This document shows positions 3,573 to 63,861 of a stretch of DNA of 64,000 nucleotides, one piece after another; position 1 is the first letter of the stretch, and each line of letters begins with the position of its first letter. The stretch lies in assembly GCA_009015555.1 (NCBI GenBank), contig GCA_009015555.1_3613.1; one strand, given 5' to 3'. Origin of the DNA: a phage. The notes beneath the pieces were generated by a model, which searched no databases, was not told where the DNA came from, and was given only the letters and a program-made list of their open reading frames with translations. The position numbers and the translations under genes were made by a program.

Positions 3573-4218
3573 ACAGGTCGCTCCCTTTACAGTCTTGCAC
3601 AAAATCACAAATCTTACGGACCGTGCCGTTCAGATCGCCTTCTTCGTTCAGGATGTCAGTTTCATACATCCGAAGATGTTCAGGAAACTCTTTCGCATAG
3701 ATATATCGGCGAGAATCCCCATCGAAATTGTACTCCGTGCCATCTTTTTTCAGACGGTGGATTCGGACAAGGAAATAGTTGTCCGGGCCAACCACATTCA
3801 CAACCGGGATCGACTCCTCTAAGAAGCCCCCGTCGCTGACCACAACTACCAGTTGCACGTCTGCCGGGGTTTCATCCTTCAGCTTTTGCAACTTGGCGGC
3901 AAATGCCTTACCAAACACATCATTCCCAAATGTGGGCTTCATGATGTTCTCGGAGCAGTGGATCATCCAGTCACGAGGGCTGACGTTTACGCCGTTGATC
4001 TGGAGATACGGGCACGGCTTCTCTTTGTACTCACGCTCATACAGAGCGAACCACAGCTTACGGCTCAGGCCGGATGCCCGGATAGCGATATCGAACAGAA
4101 GTTCCTTGAACTCCATGTGGACGACTTCAAACCCCGGGGTGTTGATATAGCTGTGGAGACCTTCGCACAGTGCATCTTTTCCCGCGCCCGCCGGGGCATT
4201 CAAATTAATCAGAATCAT
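3559..4218 (-). CDS. Deoxynucleoside monophosphate kinase (P-loop)
   Basis: MILINLNAPAGAGKD Walker A at N-terminus; start overlaps upstream stop as TAATG (translational coupling). Confidence 0.72.
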   Translation of the reverse strand: MILINLNAPAGAGKDALCEGLHSYINTPGFEVVHMEFKELLFDIAIRASGLSRKLWFALYEREYKEKPCPYLQINGVNVSPRDWMIHCSENIMKPTFGNDVFGKAFAAKLQKLKDETPADVQLVVVVSDGGFLEESIPVVNVVGPDNYFLVRIHRLKKDGTEYNFDGDSRRYIYAKEFPEHLRMYETDILNEEGDLNGTVRKICDFVQDCKGSDLYVIH

Positions 4219-4529
4219 TAGTGCTCCCACTCCTCTCTGTACCATTTTGGCATAGGTGCCAAATAACCATTCACACGCTCAAGTTCGTTAAGGATCTTCT
4301 CTGCCGAACTTAATTTTGTAAAGCGGCGGAGGGTCTTCCACCCCTTGTAATGAACCGGGAGTTCAAAACACTCATAAGAGCCTTCGCAATACCTGAACTC
4401 TTGAACCCGATACTTAAAGAAATAAGCTCTCGGGTCGTACTGGATTCGATATTTGAACTGATCGCCATTATCCCGATGCGCCTGCTTTTTGTCAAGGGCC
4501 TTTTTCATTTCTTGGGAGATGAACATCAT
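4218..4529 (-). CDS. hypothetical protein (103 aa)
   Basis: ORF with coupled stop/start to downstream kinase gene. Confidence 0.5.
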   Translation of the reverse strand: MMFISQEMKKALDKKQAHRDNGDQFKYRIQYDPRAYFFKYRVQEFRYCEGSYECFELPVHYKGWKTLRRFTKLSSAEKILNELERVNGYLAPMPKWYREEWEH

Positions 4530-4546
4530 TATCCTCCTGTTTCAAA

Positions 4547-4572
4547 AAGAAAAACCGCCCCGAAGGGCGGCT
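4547..4572 (-). terminator. Rho-independent terminator hairpin (CCGCCC-TTCG-GGGCGG family) with T-run on minus strand
   Basis: Minus-strand reading ccaagccgcccttcggggcggtttttcttttt directly after stop of 4577..5659 gene. Confidence 0.6.
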
Positions 4573-4576
4573 TGGG

Positions 4577-5659
4577 TTACAGAATGTTCGCCAGCGTTTT
4601 CTTCATCGCTGCCTTCTCACGAACGTTCTGGCGGTCACGGGCACAAGACCCGCATTCCTGACAACGGTACACCTTAAATTTGGACAGGAAGGTGTGGGCA
4701 GATTTGCCTTTTTCTTCCACCAAGTCGTCGGAACCGCAGCGTACACATCGCATCACAGACTGATCCGGGTGGAACAGGGCAATGTTAGGGTGCTTACGCA
4801 TAAACGGACGAACGGTCAGGTACAGTTCTTCCAATGTCGGGATATCCCCGATGTTGTACTCTTCCATTTCGTCGAATGCCGTAGGATCACCTTCCACACA
4901 GCGACGCCACAGACCGAATCCTTCGTGAGACAACTTACGGCTGTCCAGTTCGAAGTAGTTACACGCCGCTTCCAGTGCATTGGAAGGCAGAGAGAACGAC
5001 TCCTTCAGTGCCGCCAGTGTGTCGATCGTGATATATGGGCTTGGCGGTTGCATACCGTAATATGCGAAACGCTGGTTGGCCCAACCACGGTCGAAACGGG
5101 CGTTGTGTGCAATGAAGATATCACACTCGTCAAGGACTTGCCAGAGATCCTGAATCAGTTTTTTATCCGACTGATGATCCCGTTTGAACTCTTCCGGGTA
5201 GTCGGTCAGTTTACGACTGAAGATGGACGGGTTGTGCAGCCACTTCCCGGCGAACGTCAGCATGTACGGCTCTTGAATAACCTGCTTCGGCGCGATGAAT
5301 TGCTTGAAGCGACCAAACGAATAGGCGATGCTCGGAGAGGTCTCGACATCACCAAGGAACACTTTGGCACCCGGGTTATTTTCCTTCACCTTTTCGATGA
5401 AGGTTTTCTGGATCTCTGCCAGCGTTTTACCACCATTGACTTCCTGCTGCATAAAATCAGCGTACTCATCTGGTGTTGGGATACTGTCAATCAATTGTTG
5501 GACAGTTTCCAGATTACGTGCTTCCAGTTCACGCTTCAGCATGTTGCGTACAGTTGACTCTTGAGATTCCTTGCCCAGTTGACGGGCTACCTCGCGCTGG
5601 GACAACCCACCCTTCATCAGAGCCATAACCTGTTCAACAGTAAAAGTCACATTAGCCAA
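4577..5659 (-). CDS. DEDDy-type 3'-5' exonuclease with N-terminal HTH-like region and C-terminal Cys4 ribbon
   Basis: Exo I DVET, Exo II HNARFD, Exo III YNIGD motifs in order; C-terminal CVRCG...CQECG. Confidence 0.68.
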   Translation of the reverse strand: MANVTFTVEQVMALMKGGLSQREVARQLGKESQESTVRNMLKRELEARNLETVQQLIDSIPTPDEYADFMQQEVNGGKTLAEIQKTFIEKVKENNPGAKVFLGDVETSPSIAYSFGRFKQFIAPKQVIQEPYMLTFAGKWLHNPSIFSRKLTDYPEEFKRDHQSDKKLIQDLWQVLDECDIFIAHNARFDRGWANQRFAYYGMQPPSPYITIDTLAALKESFSLPSNALEAACNYFELDSRKLSHEGFGLWRRCVEGDPTAFDEMEEYNIGDIPTLEELYLTVRPFMRKHPNIALFHPDQSVMRCVRCGSDDLVEEKGKSAHTFLSKFKVYRCQECGSCARDRQNVREKAAMKKTLANIL

Positions 5660-57463: not shown

Positions 57464-60400
57464 GTGTCATCCAATACTGATATCATTGCCCTGTTGAGCA
57501 GCGATGCTGACAAGGCAGTTGACCAGATCATCGAAGACTCCAAACGTCTTCACATCGTGGTCAACGGGACGGGCACCGAGCAGGCTGTTGCAGAGGATGG
57601 GAGCTTGCTCCCGTCTGTTCGCAAAGCGCTGATCGACAACCTGTATTTCAAAACCCCACCTCTTCCCTGGAGAAACGGTGGGTCTGTCAACGAGTTCAAC
57701 CAGCTTTACTCCTTCACCGACGTAAGCGGGAACACCACTTGGTGGTATGCGCCCGGAGCTACGGTATCAAACCCGGTTGTGATGCGTGACAGCCCGATCA
57801 ATGACGGCAAGTTCAAGGTTTTCTTGGACAAAACCAACATCGCCGATATCTATGCCCCTCTGAACTCTCCGAACTTCGTCGGTAACCCCCGTGTGCCTAC
57901 CCCGGCCCCTGGCGACAACAGCCAAACCGTCCCGACAACCGGGTGGGTTCAGTCAGAGATGCAGGACCTGGAAGACCAGATCATTGCCTCTATGAAGGGT
58001 GATTTCGAAAACATCACCGTCCGTAACGATGCCGTTCTCAAAGACACGTATATCAGCGGTGAGTTCATTGTCACCAGTGATAAGTTGTCCGCTGCCAGCG
58101 CCGAAGCAACCTTCCGTCGTATTCGTGTGGTCGGCACCGCAGACAATACTGAGATCGCTTTTGAGCAGAACACCGCACCTCCAGCGGGGGCGAGCACAAA
58201 GACTAACATCAAGCCGTACACGATGTCAACAGGCATCTTGACGATTGACCAGTTGAAAGGAAAATCTGCCCAGATTGGTGATGTTGCTGTTGCCACGGAC
58301 TCCCTGAATGTCGATGGGTACATGCGTGGGGATTACCTGCATCTGGAAGGTAACAACCGAAACAGCACAACCCGCCCTCAGTTGATCGTTGATGGTATTG
58401 CAGAGATCAATACGCTGCGGGTGACTGGAACCATCGAGGGTGTAAAAGCTGATGTTGATGGCTTGGATATTCATCCTCGTAGTGTTATCATCGACGAAGG
58501 TTTGACGGTTGGCAAAGATACCTCCCTGACAGGAAAGCTGACTGTCGGCGGTACAACCAAGGTGAATAACCTGGAGGTTACTGGAACCCTGTCTGGTGTT
58601 GCTATCAGTGTTGACGGTAAAGACATCAAGCCCCGCTCTGTTAACACCGGGAACTTGGTTGCTACTGGCAACGTGCAGATCAGTGGGACGACCACTGCAA
58701 CCGGGAAGATCACAACTCAAGATCTTGAAGTGCTTGGCACACTGACAGCTAACCTCGACCTGTCCGGGTCGGATCTGAGTGTTGATAATATCAACGTTGC
58801 AGAAACCGCGACAATAAAGGATTTGGTGGTTACCGGAAAAACAACCGGGGTCAAAGGTGACGTTGATGGAACCTTGATCAAGCCTTCTTCTGTTCAGGCA
58901 ACGGGCCTTGTGTCAGCAGGTTCATTGTCTACCAATGCAAATGCCTCTATCGGGGGTAACCTGACGGTGACTGGAGAGTTCCGTCCCGCCAGCATGGAAA
59001 CAGGTGCAGTTGAGGCAGATAGTCTGGTTGTTAATGGTAACATTTCCCAGACGACAGGAACAACCTCTGTAGTCAACCTGGTTGTCACAGGAACGACAAC
59101 TGGCGTAACAGCCGATGTCAATGGTGACGACATTTTGCCTCGCTCCGTGACTACTACTGCGGGGGTTAAAGTCGGAACCACCCTCGACGTAACTGGAAAG
59201 ACTACCCTCGGAGATGTTGATTTCACTGGGGTTGTTACCGGGCTTGAACTTGATCTTTCTCAAAAGAACGTGACAGTTAAGTCAATTGCTGCTGTAGATC
59301 CTTCTGCATTTGGGGATGTGACGACAGATAATCTGACCAACAGCGAGAAGATCATCACTCAAGACATCCAAGTTCTGGGTGATATTCTGGATGCTGCGGG
59401 GAATCCTGTCAACACCTTTGATGTTACAGGCAAAGATATTCTGCCAAACAGTGTTCAATCTGCGACGTTTATTCGCGGAAAAACTCTGGACATCAGTGAC
59501 GGTTCCACCCTCCGTGGCCCTGTCGAGTTCCGTAACGGGCTGACAGTAACTCTTGGAGACATCATGTCGCCCCAAGGGAAGGCAACGTTCAACGATGTAC
59601 AGGTCAATGGTGCATTGACGGACGCTAACGGCAACGTCATCGGCTCCGTTGAAAGCATCAAGGGCAAGGACATTGAACCACGCTCCGTTGTGGCTACCGT
59701 GTCTGTACAGGCCCCTCGTCTCCAATCAACTGGGGATATTTTGGGCCAGAGCGCGACAATCACCAATAACGTCTCTGCGGGGACCTTGGGTGTTTCCGGG
59801 TTGACAAACCTGGCAGAAACTCGTGTGAATGCGAAGCTAACAGGGCAATCCACAGAGTTCGAAACTCTGCTCCTGAAGCGCGTTGCTGGTCAAGATACAC
59901 CTCGCTTGGTTGTGCAGGGGGATTCAGATCTCCAGGGGGACCTGAACGTCTCGGGGACCATTACCGGGATTGTTGACCTGACGGCTCAAGATATCCGTAT
60001 GAACAGCCTTGTGCTCGCCGAGGATCTTTCTGCAAGGAATATTACAGGATCAGGCACGGTTCAGGGCGCTAATGGAATTTTCGGCCAGTCTTCCCAGCCC
60101 ACCACCCAGTACGGTTTGCAGTCTCTTTCCAGCGCTAAGGTAGATAAAAACCTCGATGTTGGAGGAAACTTGCGGGTAACTGGGGCCATTACCGGAAGTA
60201 TGGACTTCACAGGGAAGGATATTACCCCACGGAGTGTCGCGGCGTCAGCCGGAATCGGGGCCGTGGATATCACGGCATCCGGCACGACAACGACGAAGGA
60301 CCTTGTGGTCACCGGGACGACAAGTTTTGCGGGAGACAGCGTTTTCAATGCAGGCCAGGTTAAGTCCAAGTTGTTCACCGTTGACATTGGTACTGATATC

Positions 60401-60688
60401 ACTTCAGGATCGGGGTCTTGGATTCCAGACGGGCTTCAGTCCGTTTATAACGTGACGGTTACCGCCGATACCGTTATCGGTTCCATTGCTCAGTTGCCGG
60501 GCGCGGGGACTTACTTCTTCTATATCGAGCAGGATGCTGTTGGGGGCCACACTGTGACCTTTGACCCAGCTTACCTCAAGATTGGTGATGGAGAAGTGGC
60601 TACAGCGCCAAACGCAATCTCTCTGGTCCAAGTAATCTACCGTGGTAAAGGTTCAATCTTCGACTACGTGATTCTTAACCGAGGTTAA
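57464..60688 (+). CDS. Long tail fibre protein with internal repeated modules (GTG start)
   Basis: 1074-aa protein with repeated VTGT..GV..DVDG.DI.PRSV units; RBS GAGGAG before GTG. Confidence 0.62.
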   Translation: MSSNTDIIALLSSDADKAVDQIIEDSKRLHIVVNGTGTEQAVAEDGSLLPSVRKALIDNLYFKTPPLPWRNGGSVNEFNQLYSFTDVSGNTTWWYAPGATVSNPVVMRDSPINDGKFKVFLDKTNIADIYAPLNSPNFVGNPRVPTPAPGDNSQTVPTTGWVQSEMQDLEDQIIASMKGDFENITVRNDAVLKDTYISGEFIVTSDKLSAASAEATFRRIRVVGTADNTEIAFEQNTAPPAGASTKTNIKPYTMSTGILTIDQLKGKSAQIGDVAVATDSLNVDGYMRGDYLHLEGNNRNSTTRPQLIVDGIAEINTLRVTGTIEGVKADVDGLDIHPRSVIIDEGLTVGKDTSLTGKLTVGGTTKVNNLEVTGTLSGVAISVDGKDIKPRSVNTGNLVATGNVQISGTTTATGKITTQDLEVLGTLTANLDLSGSDLSVDNINVAETATIKDLVVTGKTTGVKGDVDGTLIKPSSVQATGLVSAGSLSTNANASIGGNLTVTGEFRPASMETGAVEADSLVVNGNISQTTGTTSVVNLVVTGTTTGVTADVNGDDILPRSVTTTAGVKVGTTLDVTGKTTLGDVDFTGVVTGLELDLSQKNVTVKSIAAVDPSAFGDVTTDNLTNSEKIITQDIQVLGDILDAAGNPVNTFDVTGKDILPNSVQSATFIRGKTLDISDGSTLRGPVEFRNGLTVTLGDIMSPQGKATFNDVQVNGALTDANGNVIGSVESIKGKDIEPRSVVATVSVQAPRLQSTGDILGQSATITNNVSAGTLGVSGLTNLAETRVNAKLTGQSTEFETLLLKRVAGQDTPRLVVQGDSDLQGDLNVSGTITGIVDLTAQDIRMNSLVLAEDLSARNITGSGTVQGANGIFGQSSQPTTQYGLQSLSSAKVDKNLDVGGNLRVTGAITGSMDFTGKDITPRSVAASAGIGAVDITASGTTTTKDLVVTGTTSFAGDSVFNAGQVKSKLFTVDIGTDITSGSGSWIPDGLQSVYNVTVTADTVIGSIAQLPGAGTYFFYIEQDAVGGHTVTFDPAYLKIGDGEVATAPNAISLVQVIYRGKGSIFDYVILNRG

Positions 60689-60726: not shown

Positions 60727-61923
60727 ATGTTTCCTTTTGCTATTATTCCACCGTTTGTTCTTTCAGGCAAGGAAAAAATCAAGCAGTTTTCGGTTACGTC
60801 TTACGACAGTATGGTCCTGACTGATAAGGGGAACCTGTATGTTACAGGATTCAACCGGGTGGGTGAGCTTGGTGTTGGGGACACAACTAACCGAAATAAC
60901 CAATGGGTTTTGGTAATGCAGGACGTAAACTGGATTGCAAGCAACCGTGAGAAGCTGTGGGCAATTAAGAACGACGGTTCCATTTACACCCCGGATCTTC
61001 GGTCATCCAGTACAACTGCATATACTTGGCAAATCGACACGGTAGCACCTGGAAGTATTGGGGATTTGTCTGGGGATAATATCAAGGAGATTTACAGCGA
61101 CACAGAGAGCGTATATATCCTCAAAAAGGATGGTTCACTGTGGTATCTGGGAAATAACTCTAAAGGCCAAGCTGGAAACGGGGGAACTTCCTTAACCACA
61201 CGCTTTGTGAAGGTTTCAGATGGTGTGGTATCTTGGTCATCCAGTGGACCCACTGTTGTTTTCGTGAAAACAGACGGATACTTCTGGGGCTGCGGATCAA
61301 ATTCCCGAAATATCATTTCCTCTGCTGGCAGCAGTATCACAACCCCTACCCGGATGTTTAGCACCACCCACGCTGACGGAGGTGTTGTAACAGATTACAC
61401 GCTGGCCTCTGACCAAGCGTTTTTGATCAGATATAGTAATGGTAAATATCGTACCAAAGGTCTCAATATCGGACAACTTCCTTCAGGGGATGCAAGTCCA
61501 TACAATACCCTTACGGACGTTCCTGACGGATACACCCCCGGTGATGGAACGGAGCCTCTGGTAAGCAAAACAGGAGGGGTGTCGGCCTCTGGAACTTGGC
61601 CTAACTATAGTGGTCTTTTCTTCTACCATACGGGAGGGAAATTCATAGTCACTGGTCAAGCAAGCGGGAGAATTTCCGGGACCAGCCAAACCAGCGGTAC
61701 ACTCTCAAACTGGACCAATGTCGATGCGGCAAGTGACGAGATCCCATCTATCAAGGGAATGACCTTCGGACTGGGTTGGGTTGCTGCCTACAACGATACG
61801 CAGATTCTGTACTGGGGGTATACGGGAAACTCCTCTGCATATCCGGTTGTGGGATACCTAATGCCCGGACCTTCAAGGCTTGAATATGTGGCACGTTTTG
61901 CAACCCCGCCGATCGAGGCATAA
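60727..61923 (+). CDS. RCC1-like repeat (beta-propeller) protein
   Basis: Recurrent G.N..GQ.G.G / LG.G units (GFNRVGELGVGD, GNNSKGQAGNGG, GLNIGQLPSG). Confidence 0.5.
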   Translation: MFPFAIIPPFVLSGKEKIKQFSVTSYDSMVLTDKGNLYVTGFNRVGELGVGDTTNRNNQWVLVMQDVNWIASNREKLWAIKNDGSIYTPDLRSSSTTAYTWQIDTVAPGSIGDLSGDNIKEIYSDTESVYILKKDGSLWYLGNNSKGQAGNGGTSLTTRFVKVSDGVVSWSSSGPTVVFVKTDGYFWGCGSNSRNIISSAGSSITTPTRMFSTTHADGGVVTDYTLASDQAFLIRYSNGKYRTKGLNIGQLPSGDASPYNTLTDVPDGYTPGDGTEPLVSKTGGVSASGTWPNYSGLFFYHTGGKFIVTGQASGRISGTSQTSGTLSNWTNVDAASDEIPSIKGMTFGLGWVAAYNDTQILYWGYTGNSSAYPVVGYLMPGPSRLEYVARFATPPIEA

Positions 61924-61926
61924 TAA

Positions 61927-61955
61927 AAAGGCACCCTAACGGGTGCCTTTCTTTT
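61927..61955. terminator. Bidirectional terminator between convergent genes
   Basis: aaggcaccc-taac-gggtgcctt hairpin flanked by A-run upstream and T-run downstream. Confidence 0.6.
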
Positions 61956-61967
61956 TATCATGACAAC

Positions 61968-63200
61968 TTAGAAGGGGATGTCATCGTCGAAATCAACTTC
62001 CGGCGGAGTCATGTCGATATGACCGTTGCTGCTTGTCGCAGGAGTCGATTGTAGAGTCTCCGGTTTAGGGTCCACCTTAGGGTCAGGCTGGGACTGTGCA
62101 GTTTGTGCCACAGAGCCACCAGAACTTTGCTCACCCTTGACGTATGCAGATACGCCCGGGACAACCTCGCTCATGAGACCACGAGCATAAGCCAACAGCT
62201 TACCAGTGATCTCTTCTGGATTGTCGTTCTCACCAACCTGGATATCACGGGTGGCGTTCAGAACAGCATGGCCCACCATCGCACCCAGATCGTAATCAGA
62301 CATACCCTTGTTAGCCGGATCATTTGCAGCGTCCAGCTTCAGATGTTTGGTGACATCATGAACAACCTTGGCTACTTCCACCACCGGAGGGATAGTCAGA
62401 CCGCTACGACGCAGGTTCAGGGCACCGTTCAGTGCATGGCCCGTTTCCATACCGGAGTTGTCCTTCTTGAAACCACCTTTGGAACCGCCCGCACCTGCAC
62501 CAGCAGAACCTTTTGGACCGTAGGCTTTGAAACCTGACAATGTACCATCCTCAGCACGTTGCCCTGCCAGGCGACCACCCACCTGAACTTGGGCGATCTG
62601 CTCTTTGTTCAGAACCACAGAGACTTCATTACCGTTCTCATCCTTCACCACAGCGCCTGTATCGCTCAGGGAGAGGATTTCTCCGTAAACCTTAGTGGTT
62701 TTGCCACCTGGGGCGTTGGACGACGCAGAGGACGTCTGAGAGCCTCCTGCATTGCCTGCCGGGGCGGCATCACGGGCACCGGATTTGTCGGTAATAACGA
62801 TCTTGGATTTCTTACCCTCCGGGGCAGAGCGTTCGTTGCCGTCACTATCAGTCCACTTACGGATCTGGACAGGAACACGAATTGCCATACCCGGCTTCAG
62901 GTCAACCCATACTTCGCCTTCTTTTACCTGATACTGGCTTTCGTATTTCATGTTCTTCACTTCGTGAGTTCCGAAGCTGATCCACACCTGATCTTCACCG
63001 TTTTTAACCAGCAGAGATGCACGGTGAGTGGCAACGATAGTCTTACCCTTGTTCGGACCCTTGTTAATGGGGGTAATTTTCGGACTGCCGTCCTCGTTGA
63101 TGCGTTTAATGTTGATACGTTCGATAGTACCAACAGCCAGGCTTACCGTAGAGTTGTCGATCGGGTTAACTACTTCGGTAATTACTTTAACATCAGACAT
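61968..63200 (-). CDS. SSB-like protein with C-terminal DFDDDIPF tip motif (410 aa)
   Basis: C-terminus ...PPEVDFDDDIPF matches the acidic tip of bacterial SSB from memory; long Gly/Ala/Ser-rich linker; RBS AAGGAG. Confidence 0.5.
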   Translation of the reverse strand: MSDVKVITEVVNPIDNSTVSLAVGTIERINIKRINEDGSPKITPINKGPNKGKTIVATHRASLLVKNGEDQVWISFGTHEVKNMKYESQYQVKEGEVWVDLKPGMAIRVPVQIRKWTDSDGNERSAPEGKKSKIVITDKSGARDAAPAGNAGGSQTSSASSNAPGGKTTKVYGEILSLSDTGAVVKDENGNEVSVVLNKEQIAQVQVGGRLAGQRAEDGTLSGFKAYGPKGSAGAGAGGSKGGFKKDNSGMETGHALNGALNLRRSGLTIPPVVEVAKVVHDVTKHLKLDAANDPANKGMSDYDLGAMVGHAVLNATRDIQVGENDNPEEITGKLLAYARGLMSEVVPGVSAYVKGEQSSGGSVAQTAQSQPDPKVDPKPETLQSTPATSSNGHIDMTPPEVDFDDDIPF

Positions 63201-63285
63201 TCACTTCTCCTTCGAGGATAAACAAGGCCCCAGAATTGAGGCCAGGACAACAGGTTACCACATTTACTCAGAATTGCAAGGTGCC

Positions 63286-63471
63286 TTACCAGACACCGAA
63301 CCAAACGCCGACCCCGTGGATAACACCGACCGGGGCGAAGATAGCACCCGCAATCAGGAACAGCCACGACGCAGTTTTGATACACACCACAACGTGGGTG
63401 ATCCATGCGACGATGGATGCGATTACGATTGCCAGCCAACCCAGACCTAAACCTGCCAGTAACTTGTTCAT
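63286..63471 (-). CDS. small membrane protein (61 aa)
   Basis: Two hydrophobic segments. Confidence 0.4.
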   Translation of the reverse strand: MNKLLAGLGLGWLAIVIASIVAWITHVVVCIKTASWLFLIAGAIFAPVGVIHGVGVWFGVW

Positions 63472-63483
63472 TTCCTCTCCTTT

Positions 63484-63861
63484 TTACAAATAGACGCGCT
63501 GCACCTCTTTGTCTGCTTGATCAAACATCAAGTTTGCAGCATTAATGTCCTTAATCATCTCCTCCGTCATCTGATCCGGGCGCAATGCCCGCAGTGAACG
63601 TTTGAAGAGGACTTTCGGATCTTCAGTTACATCTCCCGACACATCGAACATCTTGATGATCATCTTCACCGGAACCTCACGAGAAATCTGTCCGCCGACG
63701 TTGATGGCGTATGTAGCCCCTACTTCAACTTGACGGTGGTCCAGTTCGTACATCAGATTCAGGTTAACGTATTTGTATTCGTCGCAGCGAGTAATGTTCT
63801 TCTGTGCCTGAACACAAACCCAGCCCGGCTCAACAAAAGTGTTATCGAAAATGCTCATCAT
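63484..63861 (-). CDS. hypothetical protein (125 aa)
   Basis: ORF only. Confidence 0.45.
   Translation of the reverse strand: MMSIFDNTFVEPGWVCVQAQKNITRCDEYKYVNLNLMYELDHRQVEVGATYAINVGGQISREVPVKMIIKMFDVSGDVTEDPKVLFKRSLRALRPDQMTEEMIKDINAANLMFDQADKEVQRVYL

Follow-up and report, generated by a model that had tools for sequence, protein, structure and literature searches.

An SSB-like Certrevirus protein ending in the E. coli SSB tip: a candidate replicative SSB on a non-canonical scaffold

We describe an SSB-like gene (SSB, single-stranded DNA-binding protein) in a 64,000-nucleotide stretch of DNA from a Cronobacter/Enterobacter myophage, hereafter the window (NCBI GenBank assembly GCA_009015555.1, contig GCA_009015555.1_3613.1). 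The gene is complete and occupies 61968-63200 on the minus strand, where an ATG-started open reading frame (ORF) of 410 amino acids runs to a stop codon at 61968-61970; translation of the same interval on the plus strand gives no open frame, with stops throughout. A Shine-Dalgarno sequence, GGAG, is found at 63207-63210 on the minus strand, 7 nt upstream of the ATG. The protein has the C-terminus ...GHIDMTPPEVDFDDDIPF, with DFDDDIPF as its final residues. An earlier note on this DNA, made from its letters alone, had reported a 410-residue protein with this ending, giving no strand, and had taken the ending for the acidic tip of bacterial SSBs. Both points were borne out, as the last eight residues equal the C-terminal tip of Escherichia coli SSB (PMC3936761). 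The ORF probably encodes the phage's own replicative SSB on a non-canonical scaffold, with a tail that would dock on phage and/or host partners.

The window DNA shares 98.5% identity with Cronobacter phage PBES 02 and 96-97% with phages CR8 and CR3 (Certrevirus, Vequintavirinae). The SSB-like gene, 98.5% identical to ADU18_0142 of PBES 02, is labelled 'hypothetical protein' in all 25 of the near-identical records. Residues 4-410 match phrog_4477, a PHROG with function given as unknown, from end to end (E 6.4e-168); the match to SSB PHROGs is weak and confined to the last ~50 residues. At 90% identity the homologs fall into ~120 clusters, and at 50% identity there are 124 representatives; the contigs bearing them are nearly all 140-150 kb long. 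By tblastn, the gene was located in 359 phage records of the Vequintavirinae and Stephanstirmvirinae (rV5, phAPEC8 and phi92 types), only a handful of which carry an SSB annotation. Where the homolog lies, most rV5-like GenBank records (e.g. DQ832317.1 and MZ501054.1) show two 'hypothetical protein' features, and a piece of it 168 aa long, from an O157 typing phage, is present in BFVD; together these suggest that many records split or mis-annotate the gene. An April 2026 bioRxiv preprint describes Bas52_0087 of Escherichia phage RudolfGeigy (Bas52, Vequintavirus, BASEL) as an 'SSB-like' protein that the phage encodes and as a trigger of the DRT10 defence system (10.64898/2026.04.29.721553). 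The family is not dealt with in the publications on DRT4, retron Eco2, BASEL and BME3. Given its full-length match to this family and the shared core architecture (OB, conserved helical domain, intrinsically disordered linker (IDL) and DDIPF tip), the window protein is a further member, from another genus, of a recently recognised and biochemically uncharacterised SSB-like kind.

A structure was predicted using AlphaFold2 on the family alignment, with a mean predicted local distance difference test score (pLDDT) of 80 and a predicted template modelling score (pTM) of 0.40; the individual domains are well defined, but the low pTM indicates that their relative placement is not fixed. Folded modules in the model span residues 7-138, 169-227 and 249-358, with disorder at 149-165, 233-243 and ~360-402. 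The N-terminal beta-domain (residues 1-147; 62760-63200, on the minus strand like all features of the gene) has a predicted OB fold, an isoelectric point of 9.3 and a family median net charge of +4. Its conserved residues are W73, W/Y98, K32, K53, K93, G24, T58-H59 and G104. It is the only basic folded module, the other folded modules and the tail being acidic, and is a probable module for binding single-stranded DNA (ssDNA). A disordered Gly/Ser/Ala/Gln linker follows (linker 1, residues 148-168; 62697-62759), with pLDDT below 50 at residues 149-165, and leads into a small beta-barrel (residues 169-232; 62505-62696) of OB-like topology, b1-b2-b3-short helix-b4-b5, modelled at pLDDT ~90. This barrel is missing from relatives of ~280 aa. 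A second linker, Gly-rich, basic, disordered and of low complexity (residues 233-246; 62463-62504), precedes an acidic five-helix domain (residues 247-358; 62127-62462) that reaches a pLDDT of 95.7 when modelled alone. Within it D247, G254, G306 and G310 are invariant, and the conserved pattern of the domain is D-x-x-G...GHA.N...G..VGHAVLNA. No coherent relative of the five-helix domain was found in the PDB. Even the most distant relatives of the protein still align here; thus the helical domain, rather than the OB, is the most widely retained module of the family. The remainder is a disordered IDL, acidic and rich in Pro, Gln, Ser and Thr (residues 359-402; 61995-62126), which aligns weakly to the tail region of PRK09010, and the tip itself (residues 403-410; 61971-61994), in which P409 and F410 are invariant. 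The low-complexity linker of the earlier note was confirmed at residues 148-168, of which 86% are G/S/A/Q/P/T, with similar composition at 233-246 and 359-402; the middle mini-OB and the conserved helical domain are additions to it.

Structure searches with the predicted fold matched SSBs of bacterial, mitochondrial and apicoplast origin (3lgj, 3vdy, 2cwa, 1kaw, 3tqy, 7r4w, 3ulp, 8uzt and 2vw9). Matches beyond the SSBs were to RPA14, RPA32, Stn1, PriB, RecO, RuvA domain I and baculovirus LEF-3, and also to the anticodon-binding OBs of Lys-, Asn- and Asp-tRNA synthetases. The SSB alignments span ~82 residues at ~3 A, and we assign them to the N-domain (130 residues) because the middle barrel has ~59 ordered residues. 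In a Foldseek search of BFVD the family members ranked first; numerous viral entries bearing the name SSB came next (E 5e-4 to 2e-2, prob ~1.0). An N-terminal OB fold, by predicted structure, is therefore combined in this protein with a disordered linker and the acidic ending ...DDDIPF, as in SSBs.

At the level of sequence, the N-terminus could not be linked to a known SSB. A Pfam scan of the window protein gave no family at E<=1, so that it falls outside PF00436 and has no match to the gp2.5 family. The NCBIfam model TIGR00621 scored 15.5 bits, below its cut-off of 53.95, and PRK09010 scored 22 bits against a cut-off of 260, in the tail only. A phmmer search of the PDB with the window protein gave nothing significant, and hmmsearch of the PDB with domain profiles reached its best E, 0.14, with a HIT-family protein, which we judged to be a chance match. 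Alignment of the N-domain profile to an SSB OB profile (E. coli SSB plus eight diverse phage SSBs) using hhalign gave a probability of 0.4%. In the sole stretch aligned, G104, invariant in the family, falls on the likewise invariant Gly of the SSB 'KG' turn, and by eye IRKWTDSDGNER in the window protein's clade is locally like TRKWTDQSGQDR in E. coli SSB; as sequence resemblances these two small echoes of SSB are suggestive only. The earlier note had read the N-terminal region as something other than a classic SSB OB fold. That stands for the sequence and fails for the predicted fold, which, in the fold-prediction check the note had proposed, is an OB. The window protein is thus SSB-like in architecture, yet lies outside PF00436. 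Compared with E. coli SSB (PF00436, TIGR00621), it shares the N-terminal OB (predicted here), the disordered low-complexity linker and the identical eight-residue acidic tip, but is 2.3 times longer, in keeping with the note's 'more than twice' the typical size, and differs in having an extra mini-OB and a five-helix domain and in lacking significant sequence or profile similarity. E. coli SSB oligomerises by OB-OB contacts, whereas in the window protein the helical domain would be the likely means. Deinococcus-Thermus SSBs, which have two OB folds per chain, differ in that each OB is a canonical PF00436 domain and in that they are not known to contain a helical domain.

The tip, carried on the peptide PPEVDFDDDIPF, was compared with the tails of canonical SSBs (P0234-P0236), which have the same tip type. 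Among 1,575 six-frame ORFs of a composite genome (the window plus PBES 02 loci), the window ORF alone has a D..IPF ending, which makes the tip more than a chance occurrence. It is kept in the ~120 homolog clusters, down to 28% identity, and across the family takes the form D[FW]D[DE]D[IV]PF. Among relatives the tip codons vary synonymously (GAT/GAC, ATC/ATT, CCC/CCG/CCT and TTC/TTT) with the peptide constant, a pattern indicative of purifying selection at the protein level. The idea that a host ssb gene recently supplied the tail was considered and is unsupported, as the 203-nt tail-coding DNA had no match in 5,426 complete E. coli genomes (Cronobacter genomes lay outside this search).

About 17 of the 120 homolog clusters, scattered over the clades, carry an extension of ~15 residues after ...DDDIPF, with the consensus A-P-[IV]-G-L-Q-Y-x-x-H-A-I-Y-x-L (clusters P0028, P0035, P0039, P0045, P0061, P0062, P0065, P0068, P0070, P0075, P0076, P0089, P0092, P0093, P0097, P0099 and P0105; loci L014:3001-4272 and L015:3001-4242). 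The window protein is without it. Such an extension would bury the terminal Phe carboxylate required by canonical SSB-tip pockets. The same extension (…MDFDDDIPFAPIGLQYPALLLCI, …IPFAPVTLPFPNHAIHAL) occurs on the tails of canonical PF00436-type prophage SSBs (P0234-P0237), so that it appears in both families as a recurrent add-on to SSB tips. One such prophage SSB (L019:3169-3692), encoded beside an integrase gene on a bacterial chromosome, has been called as a pair of ORFs, one for the 110-aa OB and one for the 63-aa tail. In some relatives a small HNH homing-endonuclease gene (C..CG.EKPL…HHCDYNKPL.V.WLC..CHKDWH) lies directly downstream of the SSB-like gene (L014:4331-4747, plus strand; L016 at ~4210-4640, plus strand and unannotated; probably L020:2736-3143); in the window no HNH gene follows it. 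An origin of the extension as a by-product of the downstream HNH gene was rejected, since the two occur independently.

The SSB-like gene closes a long series of small leftward genes that also takes in the DNA polymerase gene, situated upstream by ~11 kb in Certrevirus and by ~3 kb in Bas52. Encoded by the phage are a family A (PolA-type) polymerase, a primase/helicase of the T7 gp4-like family, a PIF1-like helicase, RNR, ThyX, endonuclease VII and RNase H/T-like exonucleases. In PBES 02, the family A polymerase region (L004:1274-4128, minus strand) is flanked or interrupted by the HNH genes ADU18_0173 and ADU18_0175, and the polymerase coding sequence of Bas52 is annotated as a join of two pieces. 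Pfam was scanned with 173 ORFs between 90 and 520 aa in length, taken from the composite genome outside its structural module, and no SSB, gp32, gp2.5-type or PC4-type family emerged; with fewer than 25 families in every batch, the family lists are complete. A phmmer search of the composite genome with the E. coli SSB OB likewise recovered no other SSB, its best and non-significant match being the window ORF itself (E ~0.4). The window ORF is consequently the only SSB candidate for a phage that has its own replisome.

The primase/helicase has an SSB-tip-like C-terminus, a near copy of DFDDDIPF, in four Vequintavirinae genera: ...PDEMDDDCPF in PBES 02 (Certrevirus; L004:10451-12532, minus strand), ...GFEDDETPF in Bas52 (Vequintavirus; L003:7613-9691, plus strand), and, at L017 and L018, ...DDWDDDAPF in UPEC06 and ...TGMDDDAPF in Erwinia phage pEp_SNUABM_01 (Henunavirus). 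This parallels phage T7, in which gp4 and gp2.5 each use an acidic, Phe-terminated tail to dock on gp5, the family A polymerase; in gp2.5 this last Phe is essential (PMC12339929 and references therein). The likeness thus extends to an SSB with an OB (predicted here) and an acidic Phe-ended tail, a Phe-ended gp4-like primase/helicase and a family A polymerase. The differences are that gp2.5 has no sequence relationship to the window protein (no Pfam match), is 232 aa long with a single OB, and has a tail that is not the host SSB tip, T7 tails ending in ...DTDF or ...DF rather than IPF (PMC12339929).

Genetic information on the family comes from the preprint on Bas52_0087 (10.64898/2026.04.29.721553), the one member shown to be required for DRT10 activation during infection. 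There, the missense mutations D252V and Y351C in Bas52_0087 allow evasion of the DRT10 (UG17) reverse-transcriptase defence, and the wild-type protein supplied in trans strengthens DRT10 restriction. Expressed alone, it is not toxic to E. coli and is insufficient for DRT10 activation. The protein is described as having 'two OB-fold domains' and is tied to ssDNA levels controlled by ExoI (SbcB), with competition with SbcB proposed; the region of the escape sites is proposed to be an oligomerisation interface (10.64898/2026.04.29.721553). The escapers recovered are missense only, which suggests that the gene is essential. By BLASTP, Bas52_0087 (L003:15982-17208) aligns with residues 4-410 of the window protein at 28% identity (E 7e-37). 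Counted along the pairwise alignment, its D252 falls on window D247 (codon 62460-62462), one of just eight positions invariant across 49 aligned family sequences, and its Y351 falls on window Ser351 in the last helix. The two proteins have the same module order, the same FDDDIPF end and the same PHROG-level family, and both genes lie in a replication-gene region, transcribed the same way as the DNA polymerase gene. They differ in that identity is only 28% and in that the window protein, from Certrevirus (Cronobacter/Enterobacter/Pectobacterium), has Ser351 in place of Tyr351.

From the ORF, its family membership, predicted folds, conservation and genomic context, we infer the following mode of action. 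The basic N-terminal OB, possibly aided by the mini-OB, would coat ssDNA at the phage replication fork. The acidic five-helix domain would serve in self-association or another protein contact, a role suggested because it carries the DRT10 escape sites and because the preprint proposes an oligomerisation interface there. The disordered acidic linker would present the C-terminal DFDDDIPF-COOH, and the tip would dock in tip-binding pockets on phage and/or host proteins. By analogy with T7 gp2.5, its partner in a T7-style replisome is probably the phage polymerase. Identity with the host SSB tip makes host partners (ExoI/SbcB, RecQ, PriA and the chi subunit) likely as well; from this exact identity and the genetic link of the ortholog to host ExoI, cross-talk with the host appears likely. 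Hijacking of host partners is plausible, and the tip may be used in the phage's own replisome, in the host SSB interactome, or in both.

The suggestion in the earlier note that this is a phage SSB receives indirect support from the predicted basic OB matching SSB/RPA-type OBs, the SSB-style linker and tip, the direction of transcription shared with replication genes, the lack of another SSB and the independent SSB-like designation of Bas52_0087. Its other suggestion, a decoy, is the weaker option. On that account many copies of the host tip would titrate or redirect ExoI, RecQ, RecJ, PriA and Ung, so that replication intermediates of the phage are protected or host repair is stopped, and coating of ssDNA would not be the main job. 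The identity of the tip with that of the host fits this idea, as do the ExoI (SbcB)-controlled ssDNA and proposed SbcB competition of the preprint, a size much larger than an SSB needs, and a family-specific helical domain. We nevertheless consider it unlikely, because a decoy needs no conserved basic OB with conserved aromatics, because the genome, which encodes its own replisome, offers no other SSB candidate, and because the family occurs in all of these phages and is conserved in them. The non-toxicity of the ortholog to E. coli and the missense-only escapers, both from the preprint, point the same way, and the same kind of tip on the primase/helicase suggests a code used inside the replisome.

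That code could be the whole explanation if the tip served a T7-like replisome only, without host hijacking, the tails of the SSB-like protein and the primase/helicase competing for a basic patch on the family A polymerase, with identity to the host tip arising by convergence on a generic design, an acidic tail closed by Phe. The primase/helicase endings EMDDDCPF, FEDDETPF, DWDDDAPF and GMDDDAPF in the four genera would suit such an arrangement, as would the gp4-like primase/helicase and PolA-type polymerase, both tails binding gp5 in T7. We hold it to be quite unlikely, since identity with the enterobacterial SSB tip at eight of eight positions, including Ile-Pro-Phe, exceeds what a generic acidic tail needs, and the ortholog's genetic link to host ExoI suggests host cross-talk; it is in any case a sub-case of a replicative SSB with a docking tail and does not contradict it. 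Very improbable, in our estimation, is an OB factor other than an SSB for which the tip would be the means of entry into host SSB hubs; examples would be a recombination mediator, an annealing protein and a replication-restart adaptor. RuvA domain I, PriB, RecO and Stn1 stand beside SSBs among the OB matches, the conserved helical domain is without an SSB counterpart, and sequence homology to SSBs is absent, all of which such a factor would accommodate. Against it, the layout of IDL and tip is diagnostic of SSBs, mediators bind the tip rather than carry one, and no other SSB is available for the phage replisome.

Several features surround the gene in the window. A bidirectional intrinsic terminator with a 10-bp stem (AAAGGCACCC-loop-GGGTGCCTTT; T/A runs on both sides) at 61927-61950 lies between the SSB-like gene and a convergent gene at 60727-61923 (plus strand) and is common to both. 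The convergent gene encodes 398 aa, its relatives have WD40_RLD/RCC1-type beta-propeller Pfam matches, and it comes after a gene for a 1,074-aa tail fibre (57464-60688); its product is probably part of a tail-fibre/host-recognition module. Upstream of the SSB-like gene, on the minus strand, are a gene for a predicted membrane protein of 61 aa (63286-63471) and a gene for a 125-aa protein (63484-63861) whose same-position counterparts in relatives carry Pfam DUF7325. A sigma-70-like promoter (TTGACT-16-TATACT; 63917-63890, minus strand) may drive the 125-aa, 61-aa and SSB-like genes as a three-gene unit. In the 85-nt spacer upstream of the ribosome-binding site of the SSB-like gene, a weak terminator-like hairpin (GGCCTCAATTCTGGGGCC then TTGTTTATCC; 63226-63243, minus strand) could be an attenuator or RNA-processing site.

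Our work adds to the recognition of this family a per-domain dissection, a negative test for PF00436, the lack of an alternative SSB, a T7-style replisome with matching tips, and the post-tip extension shared with prophage SSBs. More speculatively, and with the odds on balance against it, the SSB-like protein and the gp4-like primase/helicase of a T7-style Vequintavirinae replisome might share a host-SSB-type 'DDDxPF-COOH' docking code that could plug both into the host SSB interactome (ExoI, RecQ, PriA and chi) and the phage polymerase; the acidic helical domain would then be a new oligomerisation or partner surface sensed by DRT10-type defence, and the 15-residue post-tip 'cap' (APIGLQYP.HAIY.L) a tip-masking switch. 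If the window protein is a replicative SSB, the known types of phage SSB would gain a structurally distinct lineage, made up of OB, mini-OB and helical domain, and an annotation gap would be filled in hundreds of rV5-, phAPEC8-, phi92- and CR3-like genomes, in which the gene is now mostly 'hypothetical'; many of these phages are therapeutic candidates. The exact copy of the host tip offers a natural probe of phage access to the host SSB interactome, and the matching primase/helicase tip suggests an experimentally tractable docking code in a little-studied replisome. The finding may also throw light on the repeated appearance of SSB-like proteins among the triggers of reverse-transcriptase and retron defence systems.
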